Of a stretch of 64,000 nt of DNA, positions 1,372 to 22,250 are shown piece after piece. The position numbers and the translations under genes are program-made. The stretch is taken from positions 160,001 through 224,000 of IMG/VR virus record IMGVR_UViG_2912838376_000002; one strand, written 5' to 3'. This DNA comes from a virus. Taxonomy: Duplodnaviria; Caudoviricetes. Numbering within the stretch: the first letter of the stretch is position 1; every line of letters begins with the position of its first letter. The notes under the pieces are model-generated. The model did no database searches. It saw only the letters and a program-made list of their open reading frames with translations, and was not told where the DNA came from.

Positions 1372-1398
1372 AAAAAAAGTAGGGGCGTTAGCCCCTAC
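1372..1398 (-). terminator. Intrinsic terminator-like hairpin with conserved GTTA/TAAC loop
   Basis: GTAGGGGC-GTTA-GCCCCTAC preceded by an A-run on the plus strand. Confidence 0.7.
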
Positions 1399-1601
1399 CT
1401 GATTACGAAGAATCGTATCTCATTAAATTTTCCCACCTTTCAGATAAATGACATTATCGATATATTTCATTCATGTGACATATGAAAATATATCCTAATT
1501 TGTCGAATAAATAATACATTAACAATGTGAATATGCTTTTTTTGGCTAAAATGACATTTTTGTCATCAAAAAACCGAGGAAAATAATCACAAAAAAGGTT
1601 A

Positions 1602-1630
1602 TTGCAATCGCTTTTTATCCCTTGTATGAT
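1602..1630 (+). promoter_or_regulatory. SigA-type promoter for rep with a leader of about 300 nt
   Basis: TTGCAA-17 bp-TATGAT. Confidence 0.6.
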
Positions 1631-1713
1631 GAAATTAAGGAAAATCAACAGCATTAAATCAAATTTGTCAATACCCATTCGACAAATTTTACATAGATTA
1701 ACCTTAAAAACAC

Positions 1714-1835
1714 AAAAAAAAATAGGCCACGATGTTCGCGCATCGCAGCCTAGGACAAAAAACTAAAAAAACCAAGAACACATACAATTTCGTTTCGAGT
1801 CAAAATTGTAATGTAAAAAATAAAATTTCGATTTG
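1714..1835 (-). ncRNA. Putative antisense copy-control RNA overlapping the rep leader
   Basis: Minus-strand promoter TTGAAG-17-TACAAT with extended TG (1841-1869), and a hairpin plus T-run terminator at about 1714-1752. Confidence 0.55.
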
Positions 1836-1932
1836 TACTTATTGTATCATGAAAAACTATCATCTTCAATAGTACAAAATACGGTTCTTAACCTTTTTAG
1901 TCTTTTGTCCTTAGTAAACTATCAAACTACTA

Positions 1933-3030
1933 ATGGATCAGGAGGCTTTTTTCATGTCTAAAAAAAGAATCAACATAAAAGACGTAACAAACGAAGAGTT
2001 TTACAAATTACCTAAGGTGCTTATCTGGAAGAAACAATACCGCGAGAACTTAAGTAGCGGTGCTAAATTACTATACATGCTAGTAAGAGATCGATTCAAT
2101 TTATCTCTATACACAACGCAAATGTCAGTAGCTAATGGAAGTGAAGCTCCTGCTTTTGTAGATGACAAAGGAGACATCTACTGTATTTTAGATAATCAAG
2201 AAATTGAATTCTCATTAAACATATCAAACAAAACTGTTACTAAGTTCATGGACGAGCTTATAGCTGAAGAACTAGTATCGACAGAAGCAGTAGATGGTGG
2301 CGCTAACAGAATCTACTTGAATGAACCAGATTCTAGTGGAGCGTCGTTGGCGCATTTTCTAGGTGAAAAAGAATACTACAAACACGTTAAGATGCGTAAG
2401 AAAAAGAAGAAAGAACCATTAAAAACTCTAGAAGAGTGTATAGCTGCTGCTATGGATAAGTATGGTGTAAAAAAAGAGGGTAGTAAAAATTCCACCCCTG
2501 GGGACGGAGAAATTCCGGTACCTGGGGTAGGAGAAATTCCACCCCCTAGTGAAGGAGAAATTCCACCCCCAGGGGATGAAGATATTCCAGCCCTAGGGGA
2601 GGAAAAAATACACACTAGTAATCTTTATTCTAATTATCCTTACCCTAATGAGATTTATCCCAACGAGAAGGAACCCAACTTAAATAAGTCTTCTAAAGAA
2701 AATAGTGGAGATCCATTAGAAGACGAACAAGAAAACACTATCGTTTCTCGACGAACTAATTATGCCTTATTAGATTCTATTCTTGAACAAGTAGGAATAT
2801 GTCCAGATTTAAAAGCACTTAACGTTGTAAAGAAGACACTTGCAGAAGCTGAAATTGCATCATTCCACAAGGTAGATGTATTAAATGCCATAGGTAGACA
2901 TGCTATGAACGTTAAAAAGTATGAATCTCAAGGCGAAGTAATTGAATACGAACCTGCATTTTTCGCTAATAATCTAGTAGACCGTATTAGAGAAAATGCT
3001 GCTAAACGTCAAAAGAAAGTGATTAGCTAA
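1933..3030 (+). CDS. repA: RepA_N-family replication initiator (probable start ATG 1954)
   Basis: FYKLPKVL, LSSGAKLLYMLVRDRFNLS and DDKGDIYC are RepA_N N-terminal winged-helix signatures. AGGAGG RBS at about 1940. Confidence 0.85.
   Translation: MDQEAFFMSKKRINIKDVTNEEFYKLPKVLIWKKQYRENLSSGAKLLYMLVRDRFNLSLYTTQMSVANGSEAPAFVDDKGDIYCILDNQEIEFSLNISNKTVTKFMDELIAEELVSTEAVDGGANRIYLNEPDSSGASLAHFLGEKEYYKHVKMRKKKKKEPLKTLEECIAAAMDKYGVKKEGSKNSTPGDGEIPVPGVGEIPPPSEGEIPPPGDEDIPALGEEKIHTSNLYSNYPYPNEIYPNEKEPNLNKSSKENSGDPLEDEQENTIVSRRTNYALLDSILEQVGICPDLKALNVVKKTLAEAEIASFHKVDVLNAIGRHAMNVKKYESQGEVIEYEPAFFANNLVDRIRENAAKRQKKVIS
2486..2612 (+). repeat. Five imperfect ~24-bp repeats inside repA (putative origin iterons)
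   Basis: AAATTCC...CC(T/A)GGGG..GGAG units, translated as PGDGEIPV/PGVGEIPP/PSEGEIPP/PGDEDIPA. RepA_N replicons typically carry the origin inside rep. Confidence 0.7.
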
Positions 3031-3201
3031 CTGCACAAGGCTAGCTTGAAATAAAGCAGAAATTAGATTCCCCTAGAATAAATTAGAATGTAATAAAAAA
3101 TCATAAAATGTCGTGGAATTCTACTATATTTTGTTGGTAATGTGTGCTAAAATGAATCTCGAACACATATAATAATAGTTTTTCGAGAGGAGTTTCGATT
3201 T

Positions 3202-4143
3202 ATGACACAAAATTTAATTCTTGGAGTAGATGCAGGTCTAAACGCAGTTAAAATCGTTGGACCTAAAGGAGAAGGATCATTCCCTTCAATTACTATCCTT
3301 GAGCCACCAAAAATGATGAAATTCGGAAATGCATTAGGAATCCAAAACAGATTTGAGTTAACGATTAATGATGAAAGATATATTTTAGGAGACCATGCTA
3401 AGTTTATTGAAACATTCAATCCACTAGGCGTTGATAGCCATAGTAGCACTGGTTCTAAAAATGATGAAACTGCATTTATTCGCGCATTAGGTGGAATTTG
3501 CTTATACTTAGACAAATATGAGAAATTCGATGATGAAGATATTAATGTTTATCTAGCTTATGGAACACCACTAGTAAGCGCTTCTGAATCTGAAGAACTT
3601 GAAGAGATTGAGAAGAGATTTAAAAACAATGGTAACCCAATTGAAGTTGTATTCAATGACGTTCCTTTAAATATTCGCATTAAAGATATTATTGTATTGC
3701 CAGAAGGTGCTGCTGCATTCTTCTCAAATGAATTCACATCTCAAAATGTTTATGTTGTTGATGCTGGTTCACAAACTATCAATCTTGCAGCATTTGTTAA
3801 TGGTATTCTTGTACCAACAGCGGCAGATACTATACATAATGGCGTAGAATTCTACAAAAATATGTATGGTAATAGGACAGCTGAAATGATTGCGAAGAAA
3901 GTTAAAGGTTCAATCGAAGCTTTAAAATGGCCAAAAGGTTCAACACTTCATGTTTGTGGTGGGTATTCAGAACAATTAGCAGATGCATTCAATGAACTAA
4001 AAGACAACAACTACCAAATGGAAATCATGAAACCTGAGCTTGCATTATCAAGAAAGAGTAAGAGTCTAAAACCAATATACGCAAATGCGGCAGGACTATA
4101 CTTTATTGCTAAAGAAGCCTTCGCTCCTGCGGTAAAAGGGTGA
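3202..4143 (+). CDS. parM: ParM/StbA-like actin-family partition ATPase
   Basis: GVDAGLNAVK (phosphate 1), PEGAAA, VVDAGSQTIN (phosphate 2), CGG and ANAAG motifs. Confidence 0.85.
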   Translation: MTQNLILGVDAGLNAVKIVGPKGEGSFPSITILEPPKMMKFGNALGIQNRFELTINDERYILGDHAKFIETFNPLGVDSHSSTGSKNDETAFIRALGGICLYLDKYEKFDDEDINVYLAYGTPLVSASESEELEEIEKRFKNNGNPIEVVFNDVPLNIRIKDIIVLPEGAAAFFSNEFTSQNVYVVDAGSQTINLAAFVNGILVPTAADTIHNGVEFYKNMYGNRTAEMIAKKVKGSIEALKWPKGSTLHVCGGYSEQLADAFNELKDNNYQMEIMKPELALSRKSKSLKPIYANAAGLYFIAKEAFAPAVKG

Positions 4144-4148
4144 TTTAA

Positions 4149-4676
4149 TTGGCTAGAAACGAAGGTACTAATAAGCCTAAAAAGAAAAAGCCGGCTAACC
4201 AACAACACAAAACGGTTTACTTCAATACTCTTAATGTGAATGATGCTAAGCTATATGATTATGCTCAGAGTGTTGGTGTTCGAAATTTTAGTGGATGGAT
4301 TAAAAGTCTAATGTATCAAGAGATGGTTAGACGTAATGGTTTGCCACCTAATCCATATGAATATATTTCTGCGACAGTTGAACCTGAAGTACAACAAGTA
4401 CAAACTATTCCAGTTCCAGTTAAACCTGTGAAAGTAGACAAAGTTCAGAACAACACTGAAGAAGTGAAAGTTTACGTAGGTGGAGAACAGGTAGAGGTAC
4501 AAGAAGTAAAACGAAGCGTTGAAGAACCTGAAGAAGTAGAAGAAGAGATCATTGAAGAAAAAAATGATGAGGTTCTAGAAGACACTGAAGAACAAGAGGA
4601 ACAGAAAGAAGCTCCTCAAAATAGTGCTCGTTCAGCAGCAGCATCTGCTATGCTAGGCATGTACAAACGACAATAA
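4149..4676 (+). CDS. Putative ParR-like centromere-binding adaptor
   Basis: Directly follows parM. RHH-like N-terminus (TVYFN...LYDYA...NFSGWIKSLM), acidic linker and C-terminal helix. Confidence 0.6.
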   Translation: MARNEGTNKPKKKKPANQQHKTVYFNTLNVNDAKLYDYAQSVGVRNFSGWIKSLMYQEMVRRNGLPPNPYEYISATVEPEVQQVQTIPVPVKPVKVDKVQNNTEEVKVYVGGEQVEVQEVKRSVEEPEEVEEEIIEEKNDEVLEDTEEQEEQKEAPQNSARSAAASAMLGMYKRQ

Positions 4677-4681
4677 TCAAA

Positions 4682-4713
4682 AGAAGTCTGGGAGAAATCC
4701 CAGGCTCTTTTTT
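4682..4713 (+). terminator. Terminator of the par operon
   Basis: GTCTGGGA-GAAA-TCCCAGGC followed by a T-run. Confidence 0.7.
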
Positions 4714-4818
4714 TGTTACAAAACACTAGATTTCACTAGAAAACAGTGTATTCTAGGTTAATAAATTGTATCTTTTTGAAAGTAAAAAGGGAGGGGCGTA
4801 AAAAATACACCCCCTATA

Positions 4819-5286
4819 TCAACGCTCAAATTTAAGAGCTACATCCATAACAGATCGTTCCTCTGGAGTCATCTTCATTAGTCCACGCATTGCTAATTCT
4901 GGATTTGAACCATATAATTCATAAACCAACCTTTGGATTTTTGTGAAGTTGTTAATTGTATTTAACTTCATCTTACATTGGACAACCATAACGTATCTGG
5001 ATTCTTTATTTGTGACAACTTTATTACCTATTGTTAGTTCAGTATTCAAGCCATTTTCAAAAGAAGCTAATTGTTCGAATCCTAACAATCCGTTCTCAGC
5101 AAGAGCGTACATATCAACTTTGAAATTTTTCCCTGTACCAACTACTTCTTTTTCAATAAATCTTGAAATATCTTTAGTCATCGCTGTTATTTCTAATCCG
5201 TCTCTTAAAGACTCCATGAAGATTGCCACTTCGTTAGTTCCAGCCTGCATTTTTGTGTTTGTGTTTGTTTTTGTATTCATTTTCAT
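4819..5286 (-). CDS. Hypothetical protein
   Basis: 155-aa ORF with GAGGAGG RBS. Confidence 0.7.
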   Translation of the reverse strand: MKMNTKTNTNTKMQAGTNEVAIFMESLRDGLEITAMTKDISRFIEKEVVGTGKNFKVDMYALAENGLLGFEQLASFENGLNTELTIGNKVVTNKESRYVMVVQCKMKLNTINNFTKIQRLVYELYGSNPELAMRGLMKMTPEERSVMDVALKFER

Positions 5287-5594
5287 TATTTTATTTCCTC
5301 CTCGTGTTGGGTGTATCTCATCATGGTGGGTAAAGATCTGTATGTTGTGAGTACGACATTATCAATATATCTAACTAAAAACTAATAAAAAAACGTGGAT
5401 TATAATGTAATCCAGTGTAAAAAAACAAAAAACAATAGAATCTACTAGTTTGATTGGATGATCAATATAATGATCCCGACTGGCTTGTTACCAGTTATAT
5501 ATATTGCTTTATATTACATATTCAATTGTAAGTGTACGAGTTTCATTACTACGTATAATAATAGATATATTATTAGTATTATTTTTTTATATTA

Positions 5595-5903
5595 TTAGCC
5601 AATAAGTGCAAACAGTTCATTGCTTAAAGAAGTTAGTTTATTATATTCACCAATTACAGCATCTTCAATTATTCTTCTAGCTTCCGCATTAACAGGATTA
5701 GCTAAATCTTTGAATCTACCATCTCCCATTTTTTTAGAAGGCATTGCAACCATTAGCTTACCACTTCTGTTTTCTACAATCCTGATATCATTCAGAGCTA
5801 ACATACCATTTACTACAATATTACAAATCGCTTTCATGCCATTACCATCTTTAATTTTCATTTTTACATCTGTAACAATTAATCCATATTCCATTATTAA
5901 CAT
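5595..5903 (-). CDS. spoVG: SpoVG-family nucleic-acid-binding protein
   Basis: VTDVKM...MKAICNI...NDIRIVE...LMVAMPSKK...FKDLANPVN closely matches SpoVG. Confidence 0.9.
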   Translation of the reverse strand: MLIMEYGLIVTDVKMKIKDGNGMKAICNIVVNGMLALNDIRIVENRSGKLMVAMPSKKMGDGRFKDLANPVNAEARRIIEDAVIGEYNKLTSLSNELFALIG

Positions 5904-6074
5904 CTCCTTTTAAATTATCTCTCTGTATATTAAAAGTCTCAAGTTTGTGTATTTCATCCACATTTTGTCCTTTTTCTATGTTTATGCCCTAATTTTTATG
6001 TATGAGTGATAACAAAAAAAGACCACCTTTCCCCTAGGTGATCTTCTCCTTTACTGCATCAACTCCATCGTTTA

Positions 6075-6776
6075 TTATAATTGCTTTTTTATTGAATCAG
6101 ATAATACTTGTACTTTGATATCTTGTGCTAATTCTGATGCTTGTGTAGCAGCTTGTTCTACTAATTGCTCTGTTTTTTCTACTGAAGTTGCTTCAACACC
6201 AGCATTTACGCCACTACGTAGTTCTTCAATAATCTGACCTAATGGTCGAGGCGTTGCTTCAGTTGGTTGAGGAATATCAACTACACCTTCAGACGCAGCA
6301 GGTACAACCACAGCAATGTTATTTTTATCAGCAATTTGTTTTGCAATTTGTTCAGTAAGATTTACTGGTGTTTCTATTGCAACTGTTTTTACTCCATCGA
6401 TTTGGTTCTTTATATTTTCAGCTAAAGATGGAGCAGGGGAGGCGATTACCACTACCGGTGCTTCTTCATCACTGTTTTCTTGATTAGCTCGTTGAATTTG
6501 AGAAGCAATGCTTGTGGATAAGACTGTAGCTTCTGCTGCTAGTTCAGAAGTAAGTTCATCACGAACATCGCGCCCTTCATATTCTTCTTGTTCTTCTTCA
6601 TCATGATCTTCGAATTCATCATCATGTTCTTCATCACATATTTCTTCAATACGTCCATTGATTAATGCGAAGATATCATCGAACTTATCTTCAATATAGT
6701 TAGCGATATCGTTTTTGATATCACCAATCTTTTCTTTTAATTCCTCTAATTGCTCTTTTTCAGTTAGTTCTACCAT
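6075..6776 (-). CDS. Highly acidic hypothetical protein
   Basis: 233-aa ORF with D/E-rich N-terminal half; GAGG RBS. Confidence 0.7.
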   Translation of the reverse strand: MVELTEKEQLEELKEKIGDIKNDIANYIEDKFDDIFALINGRIEEICDEEHDDEFEDHDEEEQEEYEGRDVRDELTSELAAEATVLSTSIASQIQRANQENSDEEAPVVVIASPAPSLAENIKNQIDGVKTVAIETPVNLTEQIAKQIADKNNIAVVVPAASEGVVDIPQPTEATPRPLGQIIEELRSGVNAGVEATSVEKTEQLVEQAATQASELAQDIKVQVLSDSIKKQL

Positions 6777-7066
6777 TAATAATCCCTCCGGAAGTGTAAT
6801 TTTAGCTTTTCAAACATAACGGTTTGAGTGCAAAAGTCAATACAAGTTGACTAATAAGTACTCTATGAAAAAAATAATATTGTTTTACAAGAAACTTAGA
6901 TTCGACATATAACAGAACAGATGTCTCCTCCCCAGAACAATAAGTCTAGGACACATTCCTAAGATAATTTAAGAATTGTCGTAACATGGTGACAGGTTTA
7001 GTTTTCTGCAAACGCAATTACTATTTAAATAAAACGATAGCAATAGAAATTGAGTTCATAGAAAAC

Positions 7067-7093
7067 AAAAAAGGTAGGGGCGATAGCCCCTAC
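7067..7093 (-). terminator. Terminator-like hairpin, loop variant GATA
   Basis: GTAGGGGC-GATA-GCCCCTAC preceded by an A-run; stem identical to that at 1379-1398. Confidence 0.7.
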
Positions 7094-7102
7094 ATGAGTT
7101 AA

Positions 7103-7900: not shown

Positions 7901-7960
7901 GAACCTATTTGGCCGTGGTTTAATATATTCATTAGAATATTAGTTTTCAATAGATAAAAA

Positions 7961-10278: not shown

Positions 10279-10304
10279 AAAAAAGGGGAGGGCGTTAGCC
10301 CTCC
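10279..10304 (-). terminator. Terminator-like hairpin with GTTA/TAAC loop
   Basis: GGAGGGC-GTTA-GCCCTCC preceded by an A-run. Confidence 0.7.
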
Positions 10305-10720: not shown

Positions 10721-11089
10721 TTATAAATTCAAGATAGCCGTTCGTCCATTCCTACCCATGTCTAGTTTTTCATCACATGGAGTACATAAGCTGTAAGTCA
10801 TGTTCCAAGGCATAAGCGATAAATCCTTACCACAACATTCACAAGATAGACATTGCTCAAATTTAGCCCACCGCTTTTCTTTCTTAATAGCTTCCTTGTT
10901 ACCAATAGGCACTAAACTATTTCTCGGAGCAGAACCTAGTATTGAAAATATGTCGTTCTGATCCCAAGGAATAGTTTTACTTAAGCGACTAGATAATATA
11001 GAAAGTGTCTTTTCTTGTAAGAACCAAGGCTTTCTTTGAGCAGGTTTATTAAAATCCTGATTAGCTGTTAAATCTATGTTTGCTTTCAA
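10721..11089 (-). CDS. Hypothetical protein with CxxC pairs
   Basis: CECC and CTPC; overlaps the upstream stop codon. Confidence 0.6.
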   Translation of the reverse strand: MKANIDLTANQDFNKPAQRKPWFLQEKTLSILSSRLSKTIPWDQNDIFSILGSAPRNSLVPIGNKEAIKKEKRWAKFEQCLSCECCGKDLSLMPWNMTYSLCTPCDEKLDMGRNGRTAILNL

Positions 11090-11814
11090 TGTTTTTTAGA
11101 GAAGAACGTAGATATCTTCTTGAAGAAACCGGGTTTTTGTTTGTTACCCATCATAAAGCGGTTTTCATGTTCTTCCAACAGAGAAAGTTGTTCTTTTAAT
11201 TCATTAATATCTTCAGGGGTTTTAATCGTCATAGAAATATTTTTACCCTTAGAAGCTTGTACTTTGTTAACCATCTTATCTAGCGTAAGGTCACAATATT
11301 CATCTTCCCAATCGCCGATGAAATAGAAGCGGTCAATAACCGTTCTACTTTTTTCATCTTGAAATGTTCCGAAGAGGATAGGGTCCTTATCGCGGCGTTC
11401 CTTCGTTACTTGTTTTTCAACTTTACCTGTATAATCCGTGAACACAACATAGAACTGATCGAACTTATCTTTAATAGTTTCTAGAACAGCAACAACATCA
11501 TCAGGTATTTCTCGTTCGTAACTTTCAAGATCCTGAATCTTAACTGTATCTTTAGAAATGTTCTCGATAAATTCTTCGATGTCATCACGGTAAACAAATG
11601 TATCGATACCAGCCTGCACAATGCTACGTTCTTTTTCAATTGTTTCTAAATGAAAGATTAATTTCTTAATAGCTTTAGTTTGGCCAGTGATTTTGTACTT
11701 ATTCAAAAGGGTAAGACAGTTATCATAGATGTTTACGAGTTCTTGATCATCTATCGTATTCTTTTTACCTTTTATAATTTCAAAGTATTCGCTTGGCGTT
11801 AGTTCTTGATTCAT
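11086..11814 (-). CDS. Hypothetical phage protein
   Basis: 242-aa ORF translationally coupled (ATGA overlap) to the CCA-type gene. Confidence 0.75.
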   Translation of the reverse strand: MNQELTPSEYFEIIKGKKNTIDDQELVNIYDNCLTLLNKYKITGQTKAIKKLIFHLETIEKERSIVQAGIDTFVYRDDIEEFIENISKDTVKIQDLESYEREIPDDVVAVLETIKDKFDQFYVVFTDYTGKVEKQVTKERRDKDPILFGTFQDEKSRTVIDRFYFIGDWEDEYCDLTLDKMVNKVQASKGKNISMTIKTPEDINELKEQLSLLEEHENRFMMGNKQKPGFFKKISTFFSKKH

Positions 11815-13343
11815 ACCATTTTCCCCACATAGTTAGACATTTGCTCACGAGCATTCTTCATAATGACTGTGCGCTGTGCACGTTTATCTTTATGAATCAT
11901 TAAACCTAACTTTTCACCTTTGTATGTTTTCTTTAGTTCTTCAATATCAAGAAGGCAGGCGATATCCTTTGCATTCTCTACATACATATCCATGATACGC
12001 TTATGTTTGATAGCGATAATTAAATCAACAGTCAGTTTCTTAGCTGATTCATAACTACCGGTAATGAACAATAACTTTCTAATCAGTTCATCAAAGTTGA
12101 GTGTACCTTCAGTGTTAAATACGCGTAACATATAAGATACAACTTTTAGAACAGCAGGTAATAGCTCCGGGTTACGGATTCGACCAACTGTATCAGCAAT
12201 ACATACGGTAATGTAATCTTGAGCCCAACCGACACTCGGAAGAAGACCTGGTTTTCTTATGTAATCACTACCACTGTATTCAAATTTACCTTCCATAAAA
12301 TCAACAGCTTTACCATTCTTCATTGCAGTGAATGCGTCGTGGAAAACCATGTGGTTAGCTACATTGAATAAGATAGCCTTCTTATAAGATTTTAAATTAA
12401 AGCGGTCAAGAAATTGTTCTGCAATTGGAACACCTTCTGCTTCATGTGCAATATAAGTAGGAGTACCTTTAACAGGGTGAATACCTTTTGTTACATATTT
12501 ACCAACATCATGAAGTAAGGCAGAGAACATAACTACTAGTTCACTATTAACAGGTAATTCATCTGCAAGATAACGAGCAGAATCAATAACTTGCATAGTA
12601 TGTTCAAATACATTTCCTTCTGGGTGGTACATTAAGTTCTGTTCAAGTTCTGATAAGCAATCAATCTCAGGGAAATGAACATCTAATACATTTGCAGATT
12701 TTAATGCATGGAAGAAGCGGGAAGGGGTACGAGCCATGAATGCTTTCTTCGTTTCTTCTAATACACGTTCAATAGGTAGTGATAACAACTCTGTTTTAAG
12801 TTGATTCATCATCGTCGATGTTTTGTATTCAATAAAGAAACCATATTCTGCAGCAAATCTTGCCGCGCGATACACTCGAAGCGGATCTTCGCAAAAAGCT
12901 TCAGTAGTTGCACGGATTGTTTCAGTTCTTAAGTCAAGTTCACCATAGAACGGATCAATTAATTTATTTGTTTCTAGGTCGATAGCCATTGAATTAATAG
13001 TAATATCTCGGCGGGCTAAATCATCCTCAATAGTGATATCTGGTGATGCATAGATAACAAAACCATTATGACCTTCAGATACTTTTCGTTCTTTTCTAGC
13101 TAATGCTACTTCACAAAGTTCTCCATCAATATCCATACGATAAACAGGGAAGTCTTTACCTTGTAACATAGCAGTAGGGAAGAGACCCTCGAATCCTTCT
13201 TGTGATATACCAGTCACACAATAATCTTTATCTTTTGGTTCTATGTCTAATAGTAAGTCACGAACAGCTCCACCTACTAAATAAACCTTTGCATTGCATG
13301 TTTTTAATGTTTCTACGATTTTAGTTAATTCCACAAAGTTCAC
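11811..13343 (-). CDS. cca: CCA-adding-type tRNA nucleotidyltransferase with HD phosphohydrolase domain
   Basis: VYLVGGAVRD..DKD, EDDLARRDITINSMA, EDPLRVYRAARFAA, HPEGNVFEH and LLHDVGK motifs. Confidence 0.88.
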   Translation of the reverse strand: MNFVELTKIVETLKTCNAKVYLVGGAVRDLLLDIEPKDKDYCVTGISQEGFEGLFPTAMLQGKDFPVYRMDIDGELCEVALARKERKVSEGHNGFVIYASPDITIEDDLARRDITINSMAIDLETNKLIDPFYGELDLRTETIRATTEAFCEDPLRVYRAARFAAEYGFFIEYKTSTMMNQLKTELLSLPIERVLEETKKAFMARTPSRFFHALKSANVLDVHFPEIDCLSELEQNLMYHPEGNVFEHTMQVIDSARYLADELPVNSELVVMFSALLHDVGKYVTKGIHPVKGTPTYIAHEAEGVPIAEQFLDRFNLKSYKKAILFNVANHMVFHDAFTAMKNGKAVDFMEGKFEYSGSDYIRKPGLLPSVGWAQDYITVCIADTVGRIRNPELLPAVLKVVSYMLRVFNTEGTLNFDELIRKLLFITGSYESAKKLTVDLIIAIKHKRIMDMYVENAKDIACLLDIEELKKTYKGEKLGLMIHKDKRAQRTVIMKNAREQMSNYVGKMV

Positions 13344-15375: not shown

Positions 15376-15386
15376 GACTTTTCCTC

Positions 15387-15707: not shown

Positions 15708-15722
15708 TACGCAACAACTCCT

Positions 15723-16362: not shown

Positions 16363-16578
16363 TTAATCCTTAACAACAACTTCATAGTATCCATCGACAA
16401 GTGAAGAGTGAGGGATATGGTCAATAAAGTTATCACTTTCATATAAGACTTTGAAACATGGTCGGGGCGGATATCCTTCGGGTGTGAACATAATAAACCC
16501 TACAACCTTCGCTTCTTCTTTAGAGTGACGGAAGTTGTATGAATGTAATGACTTCAAATAAATAGGTTGTTCTTGCAT
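16363..16578 (-). CDS. Hypothetical protein
   Basis: 71-aa ORF with AGGAGG RBS. Confidence 0.65.
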   Translation of the reverse strand: MQEQPIYLKSLHSYNFRHSKEEAKVVGFIMFTPEGYPPRPCFKVLYESDNFIDHIPHSSLVDGYYEVVVKD

Positions 16579-16579
16579 A

Positions 16580-16756
16580 TTACTTCCTCCTAAACATCAT
16601 GACTTGTCTTCCGCATGAATCAGTGAATGTATGATGTAAGACACGACCTTCTAACTCTTTAACATCTACATGTTCACCTGTATAAACATTAATAAAGACT
16701 TGTACCATAGCAGCTACTTTCTCATGCTGTGCAGAACCTATATAAACTTCCAACAT
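16580..16756 (-). CDS. Small hypothetical protein (58 aa), not in the ORF track
   Basis: MLEVYIGSAQHEK... with AAGGAGAGAT RBS. Confidence 0.6.
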   Translation of the reverse strand: MLEVYIGSAQHEKVAAMVQVFINVYTGEHVDVKELEGRVLHHTFTDSCGRQVMMFRRK

Positions 16757-16768
16757 AGTAATCTCTCC

Positions 16769-16918
16769 TTATGGTTTAACTTTGCCTTCGATTTGTAGTT
16801 TCATTACTAAGTGAGATGCTAAACGTTGTTCATTTTCAGTGAGTCTAGCACCAGTTAGTTTCTTATATATAACTTTTAGTTCATTACTAGTGAAATTCAT
16901 ATTACGTGTAAGATTCAT
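16769..16918 (-). CDS. Small hypothetical protein (49 aa), not in the ORF track
   Basis: MNLTRNMNFTSNELK... with AGGAG RBS. Confidence 0.5.
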   Translation of the reverse strand: MNLTRNMNFTSNELKVIYKKLTGARLTENEQRLASHLVMKLQIEGKVKP

Positions 16919-17045
16919 ATTCTTGTACACTCCTAAACTTTTTTATGAAATCGACCGAAAAACACCGAAATGATATATATTATATAGTGGGCGGGAAAAT
17001 TCCCCGGAAACAAATCTACTGCTTCTTCTCTCTATATATAACCCA

Positions 17046-17356
17046 CTATATAGACTCATATATACATACCTATATAGACATAACACTATGACATAACGAC
17101 TATATAGAACTACACATCTACTACTATATAGAGACCTAATACTAATAGATAGATTGCTACTATATATAGATGCCATCGATTTGGTTCCATTCAATAACCT
17201 CCAAACCCTTGATACGACTGTGTTTGTACTTTTCTATATATGACAAACACTTAGACTATTACCCTATGATTATGTGTATCTACTATATAGGCATTCTCTT
17301 TATCTACTGCTATATAGACAGAGACACACACCACTATATAGACGTCTACTATATAG
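17046..17356. repeat. Array of the palindrome CTATATAG in a non-coding segment
   Basis: Exact copies at 17046, 17070, 17100, 17124, 17283, 17310, 17334 and 17349; variant CTATATATAG at 17160. Confidence 0.85.
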
Positions 17357-17481
17357 GGAGAATCACATACTTTATGTTTATGTACAGGTAGGAGAGGGGA
17401 TAGACCACCACTAAAACCTATGGCATTCAGAAGGCTTAGAAGGGGCGGAGACCCGCTTCACCCCCATCGAGAGGTGGTGTT

Positions 17482-17754
17482 TCAGCCTATTTTGAAAAAG
17501 CCCCCTGTAGGGAATTTATACGTAGTTTGTTTGTCTACTATATAGGTAACGAAGGCATTGACTGCGCCGACTGCTAGTTGCCATTCTTCGACCATCTTTT
17601 TTGCACGACGGTATGCGACGTCTTTCGGATTGTTGACCCAGTTGATGACACGTCGTTCTTTGCGAGTGACGGTACCGTCTATATCTATATAGATGACTTC
17701 ATACTTGGTGAAGGCCCAAGTGCGTTCGTAAATGTTGACGATAAATGTTGGCAT
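17482..17754 (-). CDS. Hypothetical protein
   Basis: 90-aa ORF with AAGGAGAGATT RBS. Confidence 0.7.
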   Translation of the reverse strand: MPTFIVNIYERTWAFTKYEVIYIDIDGTVTRKERRVINWVNNPKDVAYRRAKKMVEEWQLAVGAVNAFVTYIVDKQTTYKFPTGGFFKIG

Positions 17755-17782
17755 AATAGTAATCTCTCCTTAGTGAATAAAA

Positions 17783-18082
17783 TTAGATACATGCAGGGAT
17801 CAGTTTGTCTGCATAGAAAACGGGTGTCGGTAGTTCTTCCTTCGACAACCAAGCGAGTGAGTTTCCTGTTTCGATTAATTCTTCCGGTACGAATAGTTCT
17901 AGGTATGGACTGTTTAAGTTGACGACTGCATCCATTTCGATGTCACCTTCGATGACGAAAGCTAAGTATTTCTTTGTATAGTGATTTAGTCCGACTACAA
18001 CGACATCGTTCATGTTTGATGTCATTGCATAAGCTGCTGAGTGAGCAGGGGTAAACCCTGGATTAAGCGGTGGATTCTTCAT
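17783..18082 (-). CDS. Hypothetical protein
   Basis: 99-aa ORF with AGGAGG RBS. Confidence 0.7.
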   Translation of the reverse strand: MKNPPLNPGFTPAHSAAYAMTSNMNDVVVVGLNHYTKKYLAFVIEGDIEMDAVVNLNSPYLELFVPEELIETGNSLAWLSKEELPTPVFYADKLIPACI

Positions 18083-18135
18083 GTGTATTTCCTCCTATAT
18101 AGTAAGTATCAGAGTCTGGGGCTAACGCCCCAACG

Positions 18136-18348
18136 CTACTTATATAGCTCATGACTATATAGAGCGGGATCCATGTAACCAAGGCGTTCGAGTTTTTCAT
18201 AGGATGCCGCAGCTTCAGCATGTGAAGAGTAGCGATGAGATATGTGTTTGAATGTCATCCAAGTATCAGAGTGATAGAACTGTAGTCCTATATAGTAGGA
18301 GCTGTCATCTACTTTGATAATGGATAGTCTCGTTGAAAAGTGTTTCAC
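18136..18348 (-). CDS. Hypothetical protein
   Basis: 70-aa ORF with GAGGA RBS. Confidence 0.55.
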   Translation of the reverse strand: MKHFSTRLSIIKVDDSSYYIGLQFYHSDTWMTFKHISHRYSSHAEAAASYEKLERLGYMDPALYSHELYK

Positions 18349-18460
18349 GTAATCCTCTTTCCGCGTTTGTTATTGTTCCGGTTTAAATAGACGACTAAAC
18401 CTAACCATCTCGTTAGGCAATGTCTAGACTTGTAATACAGTCGTGGATGTGATATAGGAC

Positions 18461-18535
18461 ATGGACGTCGTTAGTTCTACATTTGACTAAGGGGAGATAG
18501 TCAAAATCAAAATGGACGTCGGTAGTCCTATATTT
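18461..18535. repeat. Two 24-bp direct repeats flanking a hairpin
   Basis: ATGGACGTCGTTAGTTCTACATTT and ATGGACGTCGGTAGTCCTATATTT (21/24 identical) around TTTGACTA-AGGGGAGA-TAGTCAAA. Confidence 0.75.
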
Positions 18536-18562
18536 AAAAAAGGGGAGGGGAGTGATCCCCTC

Positions 18563-19075
18563 TTATAGTTGTGGTGCAGGTTGTACCACTGTTTGTTGTG
18601 GTTGTTGCATAGCCATCATAAATTGAGTCATCTGTTGCATCATTTGCTCCATGTTCTTCTCAAGAGCTTCAATACGAGAGTTGTCCTCTAAAGGAATCTC
18701 TACAGTAGTTGGTTGAGGTGGAACTAAAAAAGACGACACCTGTTGAGGAGTCATCCCTTGTTGTGGTTGCATAGGATTCTGTACCATTGGTTGCATACCA
18801 GGCATAGGCATGAACATGTTCGGTGCAGGTTCCGAAACAAACATATCTTTAATCTTAGAAACAATAGAACCACTGTTTCCTTGATAATGACGTTTCACTA
18901 AGTTCGCCATTTGACGTTGTTGTTCAGCTTGCAGGATACCATTAACATGTGCCATCTGAGCTTGTTGCATTAACTGGTTATAGTCGATACCTTTCTCTGC
19001 ACATAGTAATTGAGTCATCATATTGTTAGCTGCACCCTGTACGTCTGATTGAAATTGTCCATATAAGTTATTCAT
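18563..19075 (-). CDS. Q/M/P-rich low-complexity protein
   Basis: Amino-acid composition; short C-terminal coiled coil. Confidence 0.75.
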   Translation of the reverse strand: MNNLYGQFQSDVQGAANNMMTQLLCAEKGIDYNQLMQQAQMAHVNGILQAEQQRQMANLVKRHYQGNSGSIVSKIKDMFVSEPAPNMFMPMPGMQPMVQNPMQPQQGMTPQQVSSFLVPPQPTTVEIPLEDNSRIEALEKNMEQMMQQMTQFMMAMQQPQQTVVQPAPQL

Positions 19076-19127
19076 GATTAAATCTCCCCGTTCTAGTTAT
19101 TGTTAATACACAAAATGGGAGTAGGCG

Positions 19128-19643
19128 TTAGCCTACCCAAACAAAATCCTCGGTATCATTGCTGATTTGAGAAACCTTACCTTCATTGATATAGTCATTC
19201 AGGTTATCTACTTCAATTAAAATGTGTTCAATCTCATCCACTGTACGGAAAGACAACGCACCTTGATTGGCATTGTTCTTTAATACTTGGATAGCATATT
19301 CTGCTTTCTCACGATAAGATGTCCCGACTGGGGCAAAAGCATATATAGATTGACCATTGAAAATAATATCAGTCGGCTGTACAGGTTTACCTACGTGGTT
19401 ATACAACTTGACCGTAACGTTATCAACTGCAAGTTCACCTATGTTGAACGTCTTAATCTTTAAGTCATCAGCATATAGAATACCTTCTACTTGATTAACT
19501 CGTTCAAACTTAGATTCAACTTCTTTCTTTGTTGTACGAACAGTAGTATCACAAGCAGATTTAGCACCTATGATACAAATACGAATAAATAAAGCCAATG
19601 TTAATAACATCCCAACAAATAAAACCCAACCGTTACCTTCCAT
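19128..19643 (-). CDS. N-terminally membrane-anchored hypothetical protein
   Basis: Hydrophobic residues 6-26. Its TAA stop lies in the loop of the conserved hairpin at 19121-19136. Confidence 0.7.
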   Translation of the reverse strand: MEGNGWVLFVGMLLTLALFIRICIIGAKSACDTTVRTTKKEVESKFERVNQVEGILYADDLKIKTFNIGELAVDNVTVKLYNHVGKPVQPTDIIFNGQSIYAFAPVGTSYREKAEYAIQVLKNNANQGALSFRTVDEIEHILIEVDNLNDYINEGKVSQISNDTEDFVWVG

Positions 19644-19655
19644 GACGATCTCTCC

Positions 19656-20027
19656 TTAAATTGCAATAGTGTATGTGCCATAAGGATTGGTAGGTTGATC
19701 AGAATCTATAACAGAAACAATACTGATTATGATGTCACCTCCAACTCCTCTTAATGAACCAATGACAGAGATACATAGCTCTTTGTCAATTACGATAAAT
19801 CTCTCATCGTTATGTAAATCTAATATTTCATCAAACGCATTCTGAATCATCATTACGACTGCACTTTCAAATACAACACGGTGCTTACTGCGTTTAATAG
19901 AATGATAGGAATACTCAATCACTGTCGGTATGCCATCAATAGTGATGCAAATATCTTTATTGTTATCAATCTTACTTTCGAACTTTGTATAACCTTCGAA
20001 TAAGGTACTCATGAAATTTGACCTCAT
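19656..20027 (-). CDS. Hypothetical protein, possible RelE/BrnT-like fold
   Basis: YSYHSIKRSKHR resembles the H...R...R helix of DUF4258/BrnT-like proteins, followed by a beta meander. Confidence 0.4.
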   Translation of the reverse strand: MRSNFMSTLFEGYTKFESKIDNNKDICITIDGIPTVIEYSYHSIKRSKHRVVFESAVVMMIQNAFDEILDLHNDERFIVIDKELCISVIGSLRGVGGDIIISIVSVIDSDQPTNPYGTYTIAI

Positions 20028-20063
20028 CTTCCTATTTAATTGTGATAAAAAAAGAAGCAGGGA

Positions 20064-20438
20064 TTAAACCTGCTTCGTTAATGATTCAATATACTTTAAT
20101 ATCTGTGCTTTCAACTCATACTTGAGCTGAACATTCTCGTAGTATTGTACGTTACCCTGTGTTTCAAATGGAGTCTGTCCAGGTGTGACCAGATAAATTG
20201 TCCCTGGATTATTCTTTGATTCTGCAATAGTGACACGAATAGAGCCACTTACTAAATACAGAATGCAATTGCAGACAATACCGTGTGCTCTTTGTAAGTC
20301 GTTTGCAGGATACACCTTAATGTCGTTTAAACCTAATTCTTTGTTGTGTGTTCTTACTGGTACGTTTACTGTGCGGTACCAAACTGATTGTTGGATTTCT
20401 AACATGTTAAAATCTCTCCTTAAAATATATTTAGACAC
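20064..20438 (-). CDS. Paralog of the 21162-21866 core domain, SpoVG/PC4-like ssDNA/RNA-binding candidate (probable start 20405)
   Basis: Shares WYR..N..LG...I...PA...Q..HGI..N..L...GSI and Y.E...L....KAQIL with the 234-aa protein. Confidence 0.55.
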   Translation of the reverse strand: MSKYILRRDFNMLEIQQSVWYRTVNVPVRTHNKELGLNDIKVYPANDLQRAHGIVCNCILYLVSGSIRVTIAESKNNPGTIYLVTPGQTPFETQGNVQYYENVQLKYELKAQILKYIESLTKQV

Positions 20439-20568
20439 AAAAAAGGAAGAGGACGTTAGCCTCTTCGACGTTTACGTTGAGCTATGATATTGTCCGCTAC
20501 AGTTAATCGAATGCAAAGAAGTCTATCCTCTTTTGACATTGCTAACCATTCTCTAGTGTTAATCTTCA

Positions 20569-20859
20569 TTATGATAACTTCCTTTCGTCTACAGGCAAGA
20601 ACCCTATCACTGTAGAGTTCTGCCTGCCGTATTTGGCTATATATTCAAATGTGTGTTCCCGATTGTTGATTGTGCATGTTCCGACTAGTGTATACTCATT
20701 AGGAAGATTGAACTCCTCGATGTTCTTGAACACGACTTTTTCACTGCCACCATCTACGCGTAATACACGTAAGGGCATACTCTTTATATTTTTTTCTTTC
20801 TTTATTTGAAGACCATTCCATACATTGGACATCATGATGCCTTCAAAGCCTTTTTGCAT
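20569..20859 (-). CDS. Hypothetical protein
   Basis: 96-aa ORF coupled to the upstream gene (TAATG). Confidence 0.6.
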   Translation of the reverse strand: MQKGFEGIMMSNVWNGLQIKKEKNIKSMPLRVLRVDGGSEKVVFKNIEEFNLPNEYTLVGTCTINNREHTFEYIAKYGRQNSTVIGFLPVDERKLS

Positions 20860-21092
20860 TAAGCAACACCTCTGACCGCTTTATCTACTTCTGCATAATC
20901 AACCTCCATAAGACCAGCAATCATACGTGATGCTAGAAGACTTGCAGATTTAAGTACCTTCGTTACGCCATTACAGAAATAAGTGATTTCGATAATACCT
21001 TCCTCAATCTTTCTGGCTACTACAGCAACTAAACCTTTTGTTTCTTCTTTTGCAAGGTAAATAGAATTTTCGTTCGTTGAGATTTCTAACAT
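20859..21092 (-). CDS. Hypothetical protein
   Basis: 77-aa ORF with AGGTGAG RBS. Confidence 0.65.
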   Translation of the reverse strand: MLEISTNENSIYLAKEETKGLVAVVARKIEEGIIEITYFCNGVTKVLKSASLLASRMIAGLMEVDYAEVDKAVRGVA

Positions 21093-21161
21093 GATGGATT
21101 CTCACCTTTCGGATTTAAGTTTTTGTGTAAATAAAAAAGAGAAAAGGGGATGCCTTCTCTC

Positions 21162-21866
21162 TTAGATTGGTAACTCATCTTCTTTAATTTGTGGTTCAAC
21201 TTTATCTCCTGTTTCAACTGGTTGCTCTTCTTGAGCAGGCTGTACAGGTTGTTGTTGCTCCATATTTTGAGGTGCAGGTGGCGTATAAGCAGGAGCTTGT
21301 TGACCAAACTGCGGGAACTGCATTGGTTGCTGTTGCATAGGCATTTGCTGTTGCGGTTGCATACCAAATTGTTGTTGAGGTTGTTGCATTCCGAATTGTT
21401 GCTGTGGCATTTGTTGTTGCATAGGAACTTGTCCTGTCAACATCGCTTCAGCAAAACGAAGAATTTGAGCTTTAACTTGTGGAGTTAAGTTAATGTGCTC
21501 CCAATAGTTCTTCTGTCCTGATTGTGCATCTACTCCATTTTCAGTTGAGATAGTCTGTACGAATGGTGCTTGTGTACGAGGACTCATACGAACTTGGAAT
21601 GAAATACTACCAATAACAGAACGCAATAAACCATTGAACAAGATACCATGTGGCACTTGGTTAGCAGATGCAGGTTTTAATGAGATATTCTCAATACCTA
21701 ACTGCATATTGCTTGGTGCATTCGTTACACCATACAGATAACTACTATTTTGACGATACCAGAACGGGTCAGACTGTTTCTGTTGCTGTTGACCAAATTG
21801 TGGTTGTTGTCCATATTGCGGTTGTGCAAATTGTTGAGTTGTCATAATAAAATCTCTCCATTTCAT
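21162..21866 (-). CDS. Putative single-stranded nucleic-acid-binding protein with Q-rich linkers and acidic LPI tail (probable start 21845)
   Basis: Beta-rich core plus terminal helix, long Q/P/M linker and C-terminus EDELPI resembling the SSB tail DDLPF. Confidence 0.55.
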   Translation of the reverse strand: MKWRDFIMTTQQFAQPQYGQQPQFGQQQQKQSDPFWYRQNSSYLYGVTNAPSNMQLGIENISLKPASANQVPHGILFNGLLRSVIGSISFQVRMSPRTQAPFVQTISTENGVDAQSGQKNYWEHINLTPQVKAQILRFAEAMLTGQVPMQQQMPQQQFGMQQPQQQFGMQPQQQMPMQQQPMQFPQFGQQAPAYTPPAPQNMEQQQPVQPAQEEQPVETGDKVEPQIKEDELPI

Positions 21867-21884
21867 AATTAAAATTTTTAAATC

Positions 21885-22250
21885 AAAAAAGGTAGGGGAG
21901 TTAGCCCCTTAAGTAGTGCACTTAAACTTTTACCTACTCTATATTTAATTAGAGGAATTATTACCTCAAGAAAGGTAAAGGAGTTATCCTTTTGGGTACA
22001 GAACCAAACGCCCAGTTCTATATCCGAACTATTCTTTACATCACTTTCGGATAGGGCGTTAGCCCCTATCCATTACGAGGGCACGTCCAGTTAAAGATTT
22101 CCGCTCTACATTTCATAGGCGGAAGTATAGGCGTTAGCCTGAACGTTAGTGAGGGTGCGTTAGCACCTATACGGTTGACCAATGCGTTAGCAGTGGGCAA
22201 CAGCCCCGGCCGAAGGCCCGGGTAAATCCCGTCCTTATATCTACGTTCTT
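21885..22250 (-). ncRNA. Structured intergenic element with seven GTTA/UAAC-loop hairpins
   Basis: GC-rich non-coding segment between the helicase and SSB-like genes. Loops at 21900, 21983, 22058, 22133, 22145, 22159 and 22186 sit on stems of different sequence. Confidence 0.6.

Follow-up and report, generated by a model that had tools for sequence, protein, structure and literature searches.

A recurrent UNAC-loop hairpin with intrinsic-terminator anatomy on one arm of a Bacillus jumbo phage-plasmid

In phage T4 and E. coli, intrinsic terminators are capped by the tetraloop cUUCGg. Sponge RNAs of the CsrB/RsmZ type display many copies of a short GGA motif in the hairpin loops of one small RNA. 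The virion RNA polymerase of phage N4, a T7-like enzyme, recognises template-strand hairpins upstream of early genes, with 3-nt loops and no U-run. REP elements begin with GTAG, and in REP/RAYT systems the copies occur in both orientations or as inverted pairs, together with a RAYT transposase. Tetraloops of the UNAC/UMAC type occur in ribosomal RNA and in boxB, and PMC12550061 describes a GNRA-like fold for UMAC loops. According to the same source, the boxB hairpin of phage phi21 has a CUAACC loop that adopts the UMAC fold and is bound by the N peptide.

The window analysed here, a stretch of 64,000 nucleotides, belongs to a pBtic235-like jumbo phage-plasmid of Bacillus (genome of 244,829 bp). 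RNA of its minus (coding) strand repeatedly reads GGC-UAAC-GCC followed by a U-run (UAUC at 7074), which is the anatomy of an intrinsic terminator. These hairpins share with terminators built on extra-stable tetraloops the GC stem, the special 4-nt loop, the C-G closing pair, the U-run and the many reuses within one phage genome. They differ in having a UNAC loop, without a Turner-2004 bonus, in their restriction to one arm and in two further, largely conserved GC pairs that adjoin the loop. The U-N-A-C consensus with a free second position is that of the rRNA UNAC/UMAC tetraloops, among which cUAACg is special in Turner-1999; here the loops cap terminators. A limited literature search found no description of UNAC loops as a genome-wide terminator cap.

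The initial annotation placed hairpins at 1379, 7074, 10287, 19121, 20446 and 21894, an inverted copy at 18117 and six more inside 21977-22192. All are present on direct reading of the sequence, one of them (near 22143) being weak, with 2 bp; a terminator with a UCAC loop (hairpin 18545-18562) had been omitted from that list. On the minus strand, the terminator at 1372..1398 reads GUAGGGGC-UAAC-GCCCCUAC and then U7. Its hairpin, 1379-1398, is GTAGGGGC-GTTA-GCCCCTAC in plus-strand letters, and the orthologue in the related genome G003 retains UAAC on a different stem. The minus-strand terminator at 7068..7093 has the identical stem with a UAUC loop and then a U-run (hairpin 7074-7093, GATA on the plus strand), and its counterpart in G003 (position 191019) has a UAAC loop. 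At 10279..10304 (minus), GGAGGGC-UAAC-GCCCUCC is followed by U6, with the next RBS about 25 nt downstream; the plus strand of hairpin 10287-10304 reads GGAGGGC-GTTA-GCCCTCC.

The omitted terminator (18537..18562, minus) reads GAGGGGA-UCAC-UCCCCUC and then a U-run; its orthologues are C-UCAC-G in G003 and U-UAAC-A in pN497. At 19111..19138 (minus), GGGUAGGC-UAAC-GCCUACUC precedes a U-run (hairpin 19119-19138), and the loop is UUAC in the G003 orthologue. The terminator at 20438..20466 (minus) has one bulge, GAAGAGGC-UAAC-G(U)CCUCUUC, and then U6 (hairpin 20446-20466); in its G003 orthologue the loop is CUAACC(C). The minus-strand terminator at 21885..21909, AGGGG-CUAACU-CCCCU and then U6, forms the end of a structured RNA, and the RBS of ORF 21162-21866 follows about 20 nt further on. 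Since its hairpin (21894-21909) reads GGGGA-GTTA-GCCCC on the plus strand, the RNA has a CUAACU hexaloop; relatives close this hairpin with A-U or C-G and have UAAC or UGAC as the loop. Finally, the inverted copy (18115..18130, plus strand) reads GGGGC-TAAC-GCCCC, has no U-run on either strand and precedes the start of ORF 17783-18082 by 33 nt.

Apart from this inverted copy and the hairpin at genome 154975, the sites are GC-rich stem-loops with an immediate U-run, downstream of stop codons and co-oriented with the gene. In 8 of the 16 tabulated sites the motif core lies 10-16 nt past the upstream stop codon. The U-tract reported earlier is visible as an A-run preceding the hairpins on the plus strand (a U-run after them on the minus strand) and is missing from the inverted copy. 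The genome 154975 hairpin and its G003 orthologue both have UAAC and no U-run, and the G003 orthologue of the genome 90749 hairpin likewise conserves UAAC without one. Closeness to the next gene did not hold as a trait of the class, with a start codon within 60 nt at 6 of 12 sites versus 11 of 31 other terminators.

The motif is clearly enriched. The window has 31 occurrences of CGTTAG versus 19.0 +/- 4.1 in shuffles, and none of 100 shuffles reached 31. Among perfect tetraloop hairpins with stems of 5 bp or more, GTTA is the commonest loop both in the window (5/82) and genome-wide (15/353, with 7 for the runner-up). The whole genome contains GCTAACGC 19 times, versus 0 for the reversed control. 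Its top intergenic word is GGCUAACGCC, and among intergenic 9-mers GGCUAACGC and those overlapping it rank first, being present in 10-12 intergenic regions. The UAAC loop is found in 10 of the 25 minus-strand tetraloop terminators genome-wide (binomial P ~1e-16 against base composition). A separate terminator scan of window 17500-24800 returned 13 sites versus 4.0 +/- 1.8 in shuffles, 12 of them on the minus strand, UAAC and UCAC terminators among them.

The initial annotation saw no such hairpin in the late arm, and indeed none of the 11 late-arm terminators carries one, a contrast that is weak alone (Fisher P 0.097 versus 12/43). UNAC terminators are also absent from 37-72 kb of the minus arm (0/13; P 0.003 when pooled with the late arm), giving a pooled contrast of 12/43 versus 0/24.

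Five related Bacillaceae phage-plasmids of 220-245 kb, including 235-kb B. thuringiensis plasmids, retain the motif, which is present in Cytobacillus and B. velezensis plasmids and is absent from the more distant relatives compared. Across five genomes, 36 of 37 GGC-UNAC-GCC sites followed by T4 are on one strand, the coding one (reversed controls 0), and each genome has 9 to 14 sites, all located past a stop codon and followed by a U-run. At 12 orthologous sites of G000 and G003 the loop stays U-N-A-C (UAAC, UCAC, UUAC; one UAUC), with no swap to UUCG or GNRA, the stems have diverged by compensatory substitutions, and the flanking proteins are just 33-87% identical. Ordinary terminators retained their loop in 1 of 22 orthologous pairs. 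The second loop position is free (UAAC, UCAC, UUAC and UGAC at orthologous sites, UAUC at window 7074 being the exception), and the closing pair varies among sites between C-G, A-U and U-A. No enrichment was found among the 101 Bacilli genomes sampled, and the UNAC loop was absent among the sampled Bacilli terminators listed. The earlier proposal that the loop is conserved beyond the needs of a generic terminator is borne out by its retention at orthologous sites with stem covariation. In the related sister lineage G005 the same cap role is filled by UUCG, with cUUCGg on 12 of 59 intergenic terminators.

The module also recurs within a conserved folded RNA without ORFs, a candidate sRNA or leader (21910..22271, minus strand; MFE -132.5 kcal/mol, z -4.66). 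Its upstream boundary is the ordinary terminator of a helicase gene, with a UUCUU loop (22272..22300, minus). Hairpins with UAAC loops are located at 22179-22196, 22154-22167, 22129-22140, 22049-22071 and 21977-21992, the third lying inside a three-way element (22125-22172). Their stems are dissimilar and their spacing irregular. An invariant CGGGCCUUCGGCC hairpin is found near 22206-22222. The RNA is conserved in G002, G003, pBTHD789-2, pAD3 and pN497; across five genomes it contains 4-6 GCUAACGC hairpins plus UNAC variants, and five to seven UAAC/UNAC copies are packed into this one RNA. At gathering scores Rfam had no match anywhere in the window, the best sub-threshold score in this region being 26 bits against a threshold of 81. 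The multiple loop-displayed copies of one short motif resemble CsrB/RsmZ, with the differences that the motif is UAAC instead of GGA, that UAAC also caps terminators genome-wide, and that no partner protein is known here.

We favour, with roughly even confidence, the reading that these hairpins are intrinsic terminators or attenuators of the minus-strand early/middle arm, with a UNAC tetraloop cap selected for folding or stability. Their GC-rich stem, four-base loop and U-run would make them factor-independent terminators or attenuators on minus-arm RNA, and we infer that they terminate transcription in vivo. They would be placed just past stop codons and often within operons, so partial read-through into the next gene would be expected. 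The common apex GC-UAAC-GC would form a UNAC-type tetraloop with a GNRA-like fold, retained by selection as a stable, quick-folding cap, and the structured RNA at 21.9-22.3 kb may be built from the same module. Anatomy, enrichment, strand restriction and loop conservation with stem covariation are all directly visible in the genomes; the loop was probably kept for its intrinsic folding or stability, not for a partner. CUAACG is one of the 30 tetraloops that ViennaRNA's Turner-1999 file lists as special, and under Turner-2004 cUAACg has no bonus and ranks 159 of 256. The presence of all four N variants and of a variable closing pair fits a structural loop class. A folding cap is a simpler cause than the two proposed initially (a phage factor bound to the RNA loop, or a DNA mini-hairpin promoter), with cUAACg a special loop and G005 using cUUCGg likewise.

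Some observations count against a pure cap. A purely thermodynamic one might tolerate swaps to UUCG or GNRA, and none was seen. A general folding advantage leaves the absence of UNAC from the late arm (0/11) and from 37-72 kb (0/13) unexplained. The conserved UAAC hairpins without a U-run imply that termination is not the sole role, and five to seven copies in one RNA look like a multi-site binding platform.

A serious rival, possible in our view though on the unlikely side, keeps the same terminators and takes the UNAC loop and the GC pairs that close it as the site of a phage (possibly host) RNA-binding factor. This could be an N/boxB-like antiterminator or terminator-efficiency factor, an endoribonuclease or a 3'-end protector, and the RNA at 21.9-22.3 kb would be a decoy for it, a platform for its assembly or a leader through which the downstream gene regulates itself. 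Such a factor would suit a loop that is strict at the 12 orthologous sites despite changing stems and even closing pairs, its restriction to one arm, its conserved copies lacking a U-run, its repetition within one RNA in five genomes and its lack of enrichment in the 101 Bacilli genomes; yet every conservation pattern also fits structural constraints of the UNAC fold. The phi21 boxB, as described in PMC12550061, is a precedent for a phage RNA hairpin with UAAC in a GNRA-like loop bound by a termination-controlling phage protein, and one G003 orthologue has exactly the CUAACC loop. However, nut sites occur in small numbers downstream of early promoters and are neither terminators themselves nor followed by U-runs, whereas here each genome carries 9 to 14 sites with a U-run after the stop codon. 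Neither a boxA element nor an N-like protein was identified, and the host is Gram-positive. Moreover, a protein on a terminator loop would be expected to promote termination, not to relieve it.

No such factor was identified, and neighbouring proteins have no Pfam, PHROG or NCBIfam match. The gene directly after the structured RNA (21162..21866, minus) encodes a Q/P-rich N-terminus, a conserved domain (about 100 aa) whose predicted fold is SpoVG-like, a Q/P/M-rich linker and an acidic tail ending in EDELPI. SpoVG proteins bind nucleic acids. The predicted fold matches SpoVG with Z 8.0 (rmsd 3.5 A, 80/87 residues; next hit 5.0), about the level that, by the fold-search tool's own note, models without a true match reach. 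The product is, as a lead only, a candidate nucleic-acid-binding protein. Elsewhere in the window, 11086-11814 encodes a 242-aa 'transposase' (phrog_10081).

Very improbable, in our judgement, is a signal at the DNA level, with the plus-strand cGTTAg hairpin extruded as an N4-like promoter or the copies acting as REP-like or origin-type elements. The phage encodes a putative RNA polymerase of its own, a sigma factor was looked for and not found, and sigma-70-like promoters near the sites are unenriched (15 versus 22.7 in shuffles). The polymerase candidate (1395 aa; 24719..28906, minus) heads the minus arm and is of the YonO/RdRP-like two-barrel type. It scores 18.3 bits against PF05183 (E 4.4e-5), under the 23.8-bit cut-off; 3 of its 12 homologues match this family (best E 5.5e-12), and the DxDGD metal-binding motif, AGADHDGD, is invariant in all 12. 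These features mark it as a putative YonO/RdRP-like polymerase, and a profile search of the PDB gave no match. PF00940, the T7/N4-type polymerase domain, had no match in the genome, a search whose control was also silent in all 14 control genomes. The phage-specific transcription system suggested initially is partly supported, in that the phage has this putative enzyme, but nothing ties the hairpins to it.

Recurrent short GC hairpins in the early region of a phage with its own polymerase do resemble N4. In contrast to N4 promoters, though, the loops are 4 nt long (6 nt at 21894) instead of 3, all terminator-type copies lie directly past the stop codon of the upstream gene and carry a U-run on its sense strand, some copies have no closely following gene, and the polymerase is YonO/RdRP-like; the N4-like alternative of the initial annotation is not supported. 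Several copies start with GTAG, as REP elements do, and the cluster adjoins the helicase gene (Dda/RecD-like SF1, 22304..23701, minus), upstream of the structured RNA. Against this, 36 of 37 sites have one orientation, unlike REP/BIME arrays, orthologous positions are stable though stems diverged, unlike recent mobility, and the differing stems and irregular spacing of the cluster are unlike iterons.

Least credible of all is the absence of loop selection, with the copies being either a single terminator cassette duplicated recently or an excess arisen by chance: three copies do share the stem GUAGGGGC...GCCCCUAC (genome 141673, 161379 and 167074), but their flanks are unrelated, the remaining copies have other stems, the cross-genome comparison contradicts it (orthologous sites retain the motif, as do plasmids of Cytobacillus and B. 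velezensis), and chance is excluded by the window shuffles, the reversed control and the tetraloop binomial test.

A UNAC tip is common to roughly one in four stop signals on a single arm of the phage-plasmid (12/43). Because it is shared among terminators, kept in relatives and recurrent (5-7x) in a nearby structured RNA, the shared UAAC tip seems to matter, whether for folding alone or as a docking site for a protein.

On the minus (coding) strand, the hairpins of the early/middle arm share one pattern: a G-rich arm, GC, UAAC, GC and a C-rich arm, then a U-run. Direct reading of the sequence found every hairpin named in the initial annotation at its place. The copy at 7074 (-) has a UAUC loop, and that at 21894-21909 (-) forms a CUAACU hexaloop through a C.U mismatch beside the loop. 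The inverted copy at 18115-18130 (+) has no U-run on either strand. Furthermore, a terminator with a UCAC loop had been overlooked at 18545-18562 (-). These UNAC hairpins (GC stems with UAAC, UCAC, UUAC or UGAC loops) are very probably intrinsic terminators or attenuators. Beyond the window, hairpins followed by a U-run are found at 72.6, 90.7, 107.9, 114.0, 121.7, 133.8 and 141.7 kb of the genome, and copies with a weak U-run or none at 126.5 and 155.0 kb.

In terms of abundance, CGTTAG has 31 copies in the window, where shuffles give 19.0 ± 4.1. GTTA is the most common loop among perfect tetraloop hairpins genome-wide (15 of 353; the runner-up loop reaches 7). The motif GCTAACGC occurs 19 times in the genome and its reversed word 0 times, and the most widespread intergenic 9-mers are GGCTAACGC and those overlapping it, in 10-12 intergenic regions. 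UAAC caps 10 of the 25 minus-strand tetraloop terminators (binomial P ~1e-16).

The window covers bases 160001-224000 of a single 244,829-bp virus record. Genes occupy the minus strand between about 37 and 189 kb; from 189 kb, past the end of the record and on to 37 kb, they occupy the plus strand. Within the window, the plus (late) arm encodes the large terminase, which has an intein, together with the portal, the major capsid protein and the tail sheath. The minus arm encodes a Dda/RecD-like helicase, a CCA-adding enzyme and numerous proteins without a family. The intein that splits the terminase gene, at 33152-36046 (+), carries a LAGLIDADG homing endonuclease domain (Pfam Intein_splicing, LAGLIDADG_3). 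A 242-aa protein at 11086-11814 (-), without Pfam or NCBIfam family, matches the "transposase" PHROG 10081 (E 3e-104), and its ORF overlaps the start of the CCA-adding enzyme/poly(A) polymerase-family gene with an HD domain (11811-13343, -). A RepA_N replication initiator (1933-3030, +) and an actin-like ALP_N partition protein (3202-4143, +) are encoded against the prevailing direction of the minus arm, a pair compatible with plasmid-prophage maintenance. No tRNA was found in the window, and NCBIfam gave nothing useful on 21 neighbouring proteins.

As for relatives, portal identity is 53% with Bacillus phages Edson and vB_BceM_WH1, 47% with KLEB27-3 and 42% with 0305phi8-36. Eight 235-kb Bacillus thuringiensis plasmids (e.g. 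pBTHD789-2) share 91.5% identity with window 17500-24700, B. velezensis plasmid pAD3 shares 68%, and Cytobacillus plasmid pN497-ZHONG shows partial similarity. The available text on pBtic235 describes a circular 235-kb jumbo prophage of B. thuringiensis israelensis, with public stranded RNA-seq of mitomycin-induced lysogens (PMC9700832). We infer that pBtic235 corresponds to these 235-kb plasmids. Among IMG/VR records, portal identity places G002 (96%) and G003 (78%) close, and G004 and G005 (both 50%) more distant. The portal had 0 matches in genome contigs, and window 18000-23000 had no megablast match in the phage collection.

Conservation of the loop was assessed by inspecting 16 sites of this genome against G003. 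At 12 of them a counterpart lies at the orthologous place: seven pairs share UAAC, one shares UCAC but closes it with A-U vs C-G, one is UAAC vs UUAC, one is UAUC vs UAAC, and two are hexaloop variants that retain UAAC. In the stretch of G003 inspected, two sites lack such a hairpin, and for two more the flanking orthologues were not found. The stems of every pair carry several compensating differences. For other terminators, automatic pairing gave identical loops in 1 of 22 pairs, a heuristic that may mis-pair; it was wrong at the tandem site 121685, corrected by eye, and this class may contain similar errors. The orthologous sites of pN497 add a UGAC loop and a U-A closing pair. These variants suggest that U1, A3 and C4 are constrained, with the second position free.

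The word GCTAACGC is enriched across six related records and nearly restricted to one strand. Its forward/reverse counts, with the reversed control, are 11/3 (0/0) in G002, 2/13 (1/2) in G003, 14/5 (0/1) in pBTHD789-2, 18/2 (0/0) in pAD3 and 14/0 (2/0) in pN497. When a U-run is required (GGC-U-N-AC-GCC, up to 9 nt, then TTTT), there are 9 distinct sites in this genome, 10 in G003, 7 in pBTHD789-2, 6 in pAD3 and 5 in pN497. Over these five genomes, 36 of 37 are on the early-arm coding strand, and controls gave 0.

G004 and G005 do not contain the GCTAACGC motif. Edson, KLEB27-3, 0305phi8-36, Moorella phage MTATph1 and G004 each have 2-5 GGC-NNNN-GCC + T-run hairpins, none with a UAAC loop. In G005, cUUCGg caps 12 of 59 intergenic terminators. 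Scans for GGGCTAACGCCC + T6 returned at least 118 viral-contig and at least 121 genome-contig matches, and these say nothing about prevalence, since by our own estimate chance alone would give about 120 in 596 Gb. In 101 Bacilli genomes, a class-level sample that does not represent the true host, GGCTAACGCC is mostly rarer than its reversed control, with at most 14 copies per 1-7.3 Mb genome; the phage carries 14 in its 0.245 Mb (a count from site contexts). TAAC was the loop in none of the approximately 150 GGGC-NNNN-GCCC + T5 matches listed from 201 Bacilli genomes (413 further matches fall outside these).

In terms of placement, the motif core lies 10-16 nt 3' of the upstream minus-strand stop codon in 8 of the 16 tabulated sites. 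UNAC-type loops (UNAC or UAUC) cap 12 of 43 sense-oriented intergenic terminators in the minus arm at 72-189 kb, 0 of 13 in the minus arm at 37-72 kb and 0 of 11 in the late arm. The initial annotation had noticed no such hairpin in the late arm; this absence is borne out by the 0 of 11, but against the late arm alone the difference does not reach significance (P 0.097); it does once both other regions are pooled (P 0.003). Short distance to the next gene start, also proposed, does not mark the class (within 60 nt in 6 of 12 UNAC vs 11 of 31 other terminators). The minus arm as a whole consists of operons with internal terminators, and an independent consensus scan of 17500-24800 found 13 terminator-like sites vs 4.0 ± 1.8 in shuffles, and no excess of sigma-70-like promoters (15 vs 22.7 in shuffles).

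A few individual sites add to this picture. In G003, near 148,860, a UAAC hairpin with U-run directly follows a tRNA-like 3' end (GGTTCAAGTCC... T-arm), which suggests that tRNA transcription units are also ended by the hairpin; the copy at genome 114017 is in the same tRNA-bearing region (114,000-116,000). GC[UAAC]GC hairpins just 3' of stop codons, conserved but without a proper U-run, occur at genome 154,975 and at G003 178,130 and 126,314, the last followed by a second, ordinary terminator. Termination as their sole role does not account for these. The long terminator by repA (1723-1752, -; G003 185133-185162), with a CGCGAA/CAGCGAA loop, is nearly conserved, unlike most non-UNAC terminators.

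A cluster of loops lies in an ORF-free stretch at 21910-22271 (-), bounded upstream by the helicase terminator (22272-22300) and downstream by the CUAACU terminator (21894-21909). The 21.9-22.3 kb stretch folds at -132.5 kcal/mol (z -4.66), with 0 of 100 shuffles as low. A run search listed 24 entries, and four RNA runs gave 0 reads or contigs on window 18000-23000, an outcome with no bearing on expression. In pBTHD789-2, pAD3 and pN497, too, the gap between helicase and next gene lacks an ORF (459, 621 and 955 nt, respectively); each gap has an invariant CGGGCCUUCGGCC hairpin, then 4-6 GC[UAAC]GC hairpins on differing stems. In the AAGGN[UNAC]N'CCUU hairpin the loop is kept and the closing pair is A-U in two sequences, U-A in two and C-G in one, a covariation that lends modest support over four effectively distinct sequences. 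Rfam gave nothing at gathering scores in the window, and its sub-threshold matches were chance-level. A DNA pattern scan and a helicase search of viral contigs each recovered only G002 and G003, the metagenome pattern scan 0, and G005 has no comparable CUUCGG cluster. Conserved in plasmid-prophages of both Bacillus and Cytobacillus, the element is a candidate for a new RNA family.

Directly after this RNA is ORF 21162-21866 (-). Contigs of ~220-247 kb carry its homologues in B. cereus, B. paranthracis, Gottfriedia, Cytobacillus, B. subtilis and Priestia. The N-terminus of the protein is Q/P-rich; then come a conserved domain (~100 aa), a linker rich in Q, P and M, and an acidic, SSB-like tail ending EDELPI. 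The tail and linker suggested an SSB, an identity we rejected: the predicted structure of the domain (pLDDT 72-94) best matches SpoVG (Z 8.0, rmsd 3.5 Å, 80 of 87 residues; next Z 5.0), with no OB-fold chain among the 50 matches listed. Foldseek gave no match at E <= 0.001. On this model, a nucleic-acid-binding product is a lead only. ORF 20064-20438 (-) is a paralogue of its N-terminal domain.

The first gene of the minus arm, 24719-28906 (-), encodes a 1395-aa putative YonO/RdRP-like single-chain RNA polymerase. Its PF05183 (RdRP) match is sub-threshold (18.3 bits), and 3 of 12 homologues match the family (best E 5.5e-12). The protein carries an AGADHDGD motif, which is invariant in all 12. 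Pfam hmmscan (even at E 1), PHROGs and tblastn against the phage collection gave no match, PDB matches were at chance level (best E 0.86 with the single protein, 1.2 with the profile), and the polymerase alignment found 0 in metagenomes. No sigma-70 region-2 was found across the genome. For 0305phi8-36, Hardies et al. proposed a polymerase of this kind (orf99), together with a promoter motif of 21 bp specific to the phage (PMC2147016). The characterised example is YonO of SPbeta; in the portion of that paper available, the beta flap is among the msRNAP domains discussed as later additions to a YonO-like core, and hairpin-dependent pausing and termination require it (PMC5467207).

Why the loop is conserved can be explained in several ways. 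A purely structural cap is the leading reading, at about even probability: cUAACg is among the 30 special tetraloops of the Turner-1999 tables (lists taken from saved energy-parameter files), the free second position matches the loop class, and the sister lineage uses UUCG likewise. UMAC loops adopt GNRA-like folds, according to the text available (PMC12550061). Conservation for a protein that reads the loop is possible, with appreciably less weight. In its favour, loops are never exchanged for another stable class, UNAC sites are restricted to one arm, copies without a U-run are conserved, and a single RNA carries 5-7 copies; the same source text gives as precedent a CUAACC boxB loop bound by phi21 N (PMC12550061). 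DNA-level readings, including the N4-like promoter first suggested, are very improbable; no link between the hairpins and the 1395-aa polymerase was found. Duplication or chance is the weakest explanation of all; the proposed motif scan of genome and relatives was run, and the loop is enriched, kept in close relatives and carried on stems with compensating changes.

Our literature search found no description of either UNAC hairpins or the multi-loop RNA, though supplements may contain transcript maps; in the available text of the pBtic235 paper (PMC9700832), "terminator", "hairpin" and "RNA polymerase" each have 0 occurrences.

If the loop is no more than a folding cap, the phage lineage is a clear natural example of an unusual special tetraloop fixed for terminators (UNAC, not UUCG or GNRA). 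That would be of use to terminator prediction, and also to RNA energy models, as cUAACg receives no bonus in Turner-2004. More speculatively, and rather unlikely as a whole, the hairpins may be the cis-elements of a phage regulon. A phage nucleic-acid-binding protein would read the loop on ~10-14 early/middle-arm terminators, with the SpoVG-fold, acidic-tailed family encoded directly after the multi-loop RNA as candidate readers. The conserved RNA, with its 5-7 loops, would titrate the reader or act as its assembly platform, and the outcome would be a switch in read-through or RNA stability. Such a circuit would resemble N/boxB or Csr, here in a Gram-positive jumbo phage-plasmid with a YonO-type polymerase.
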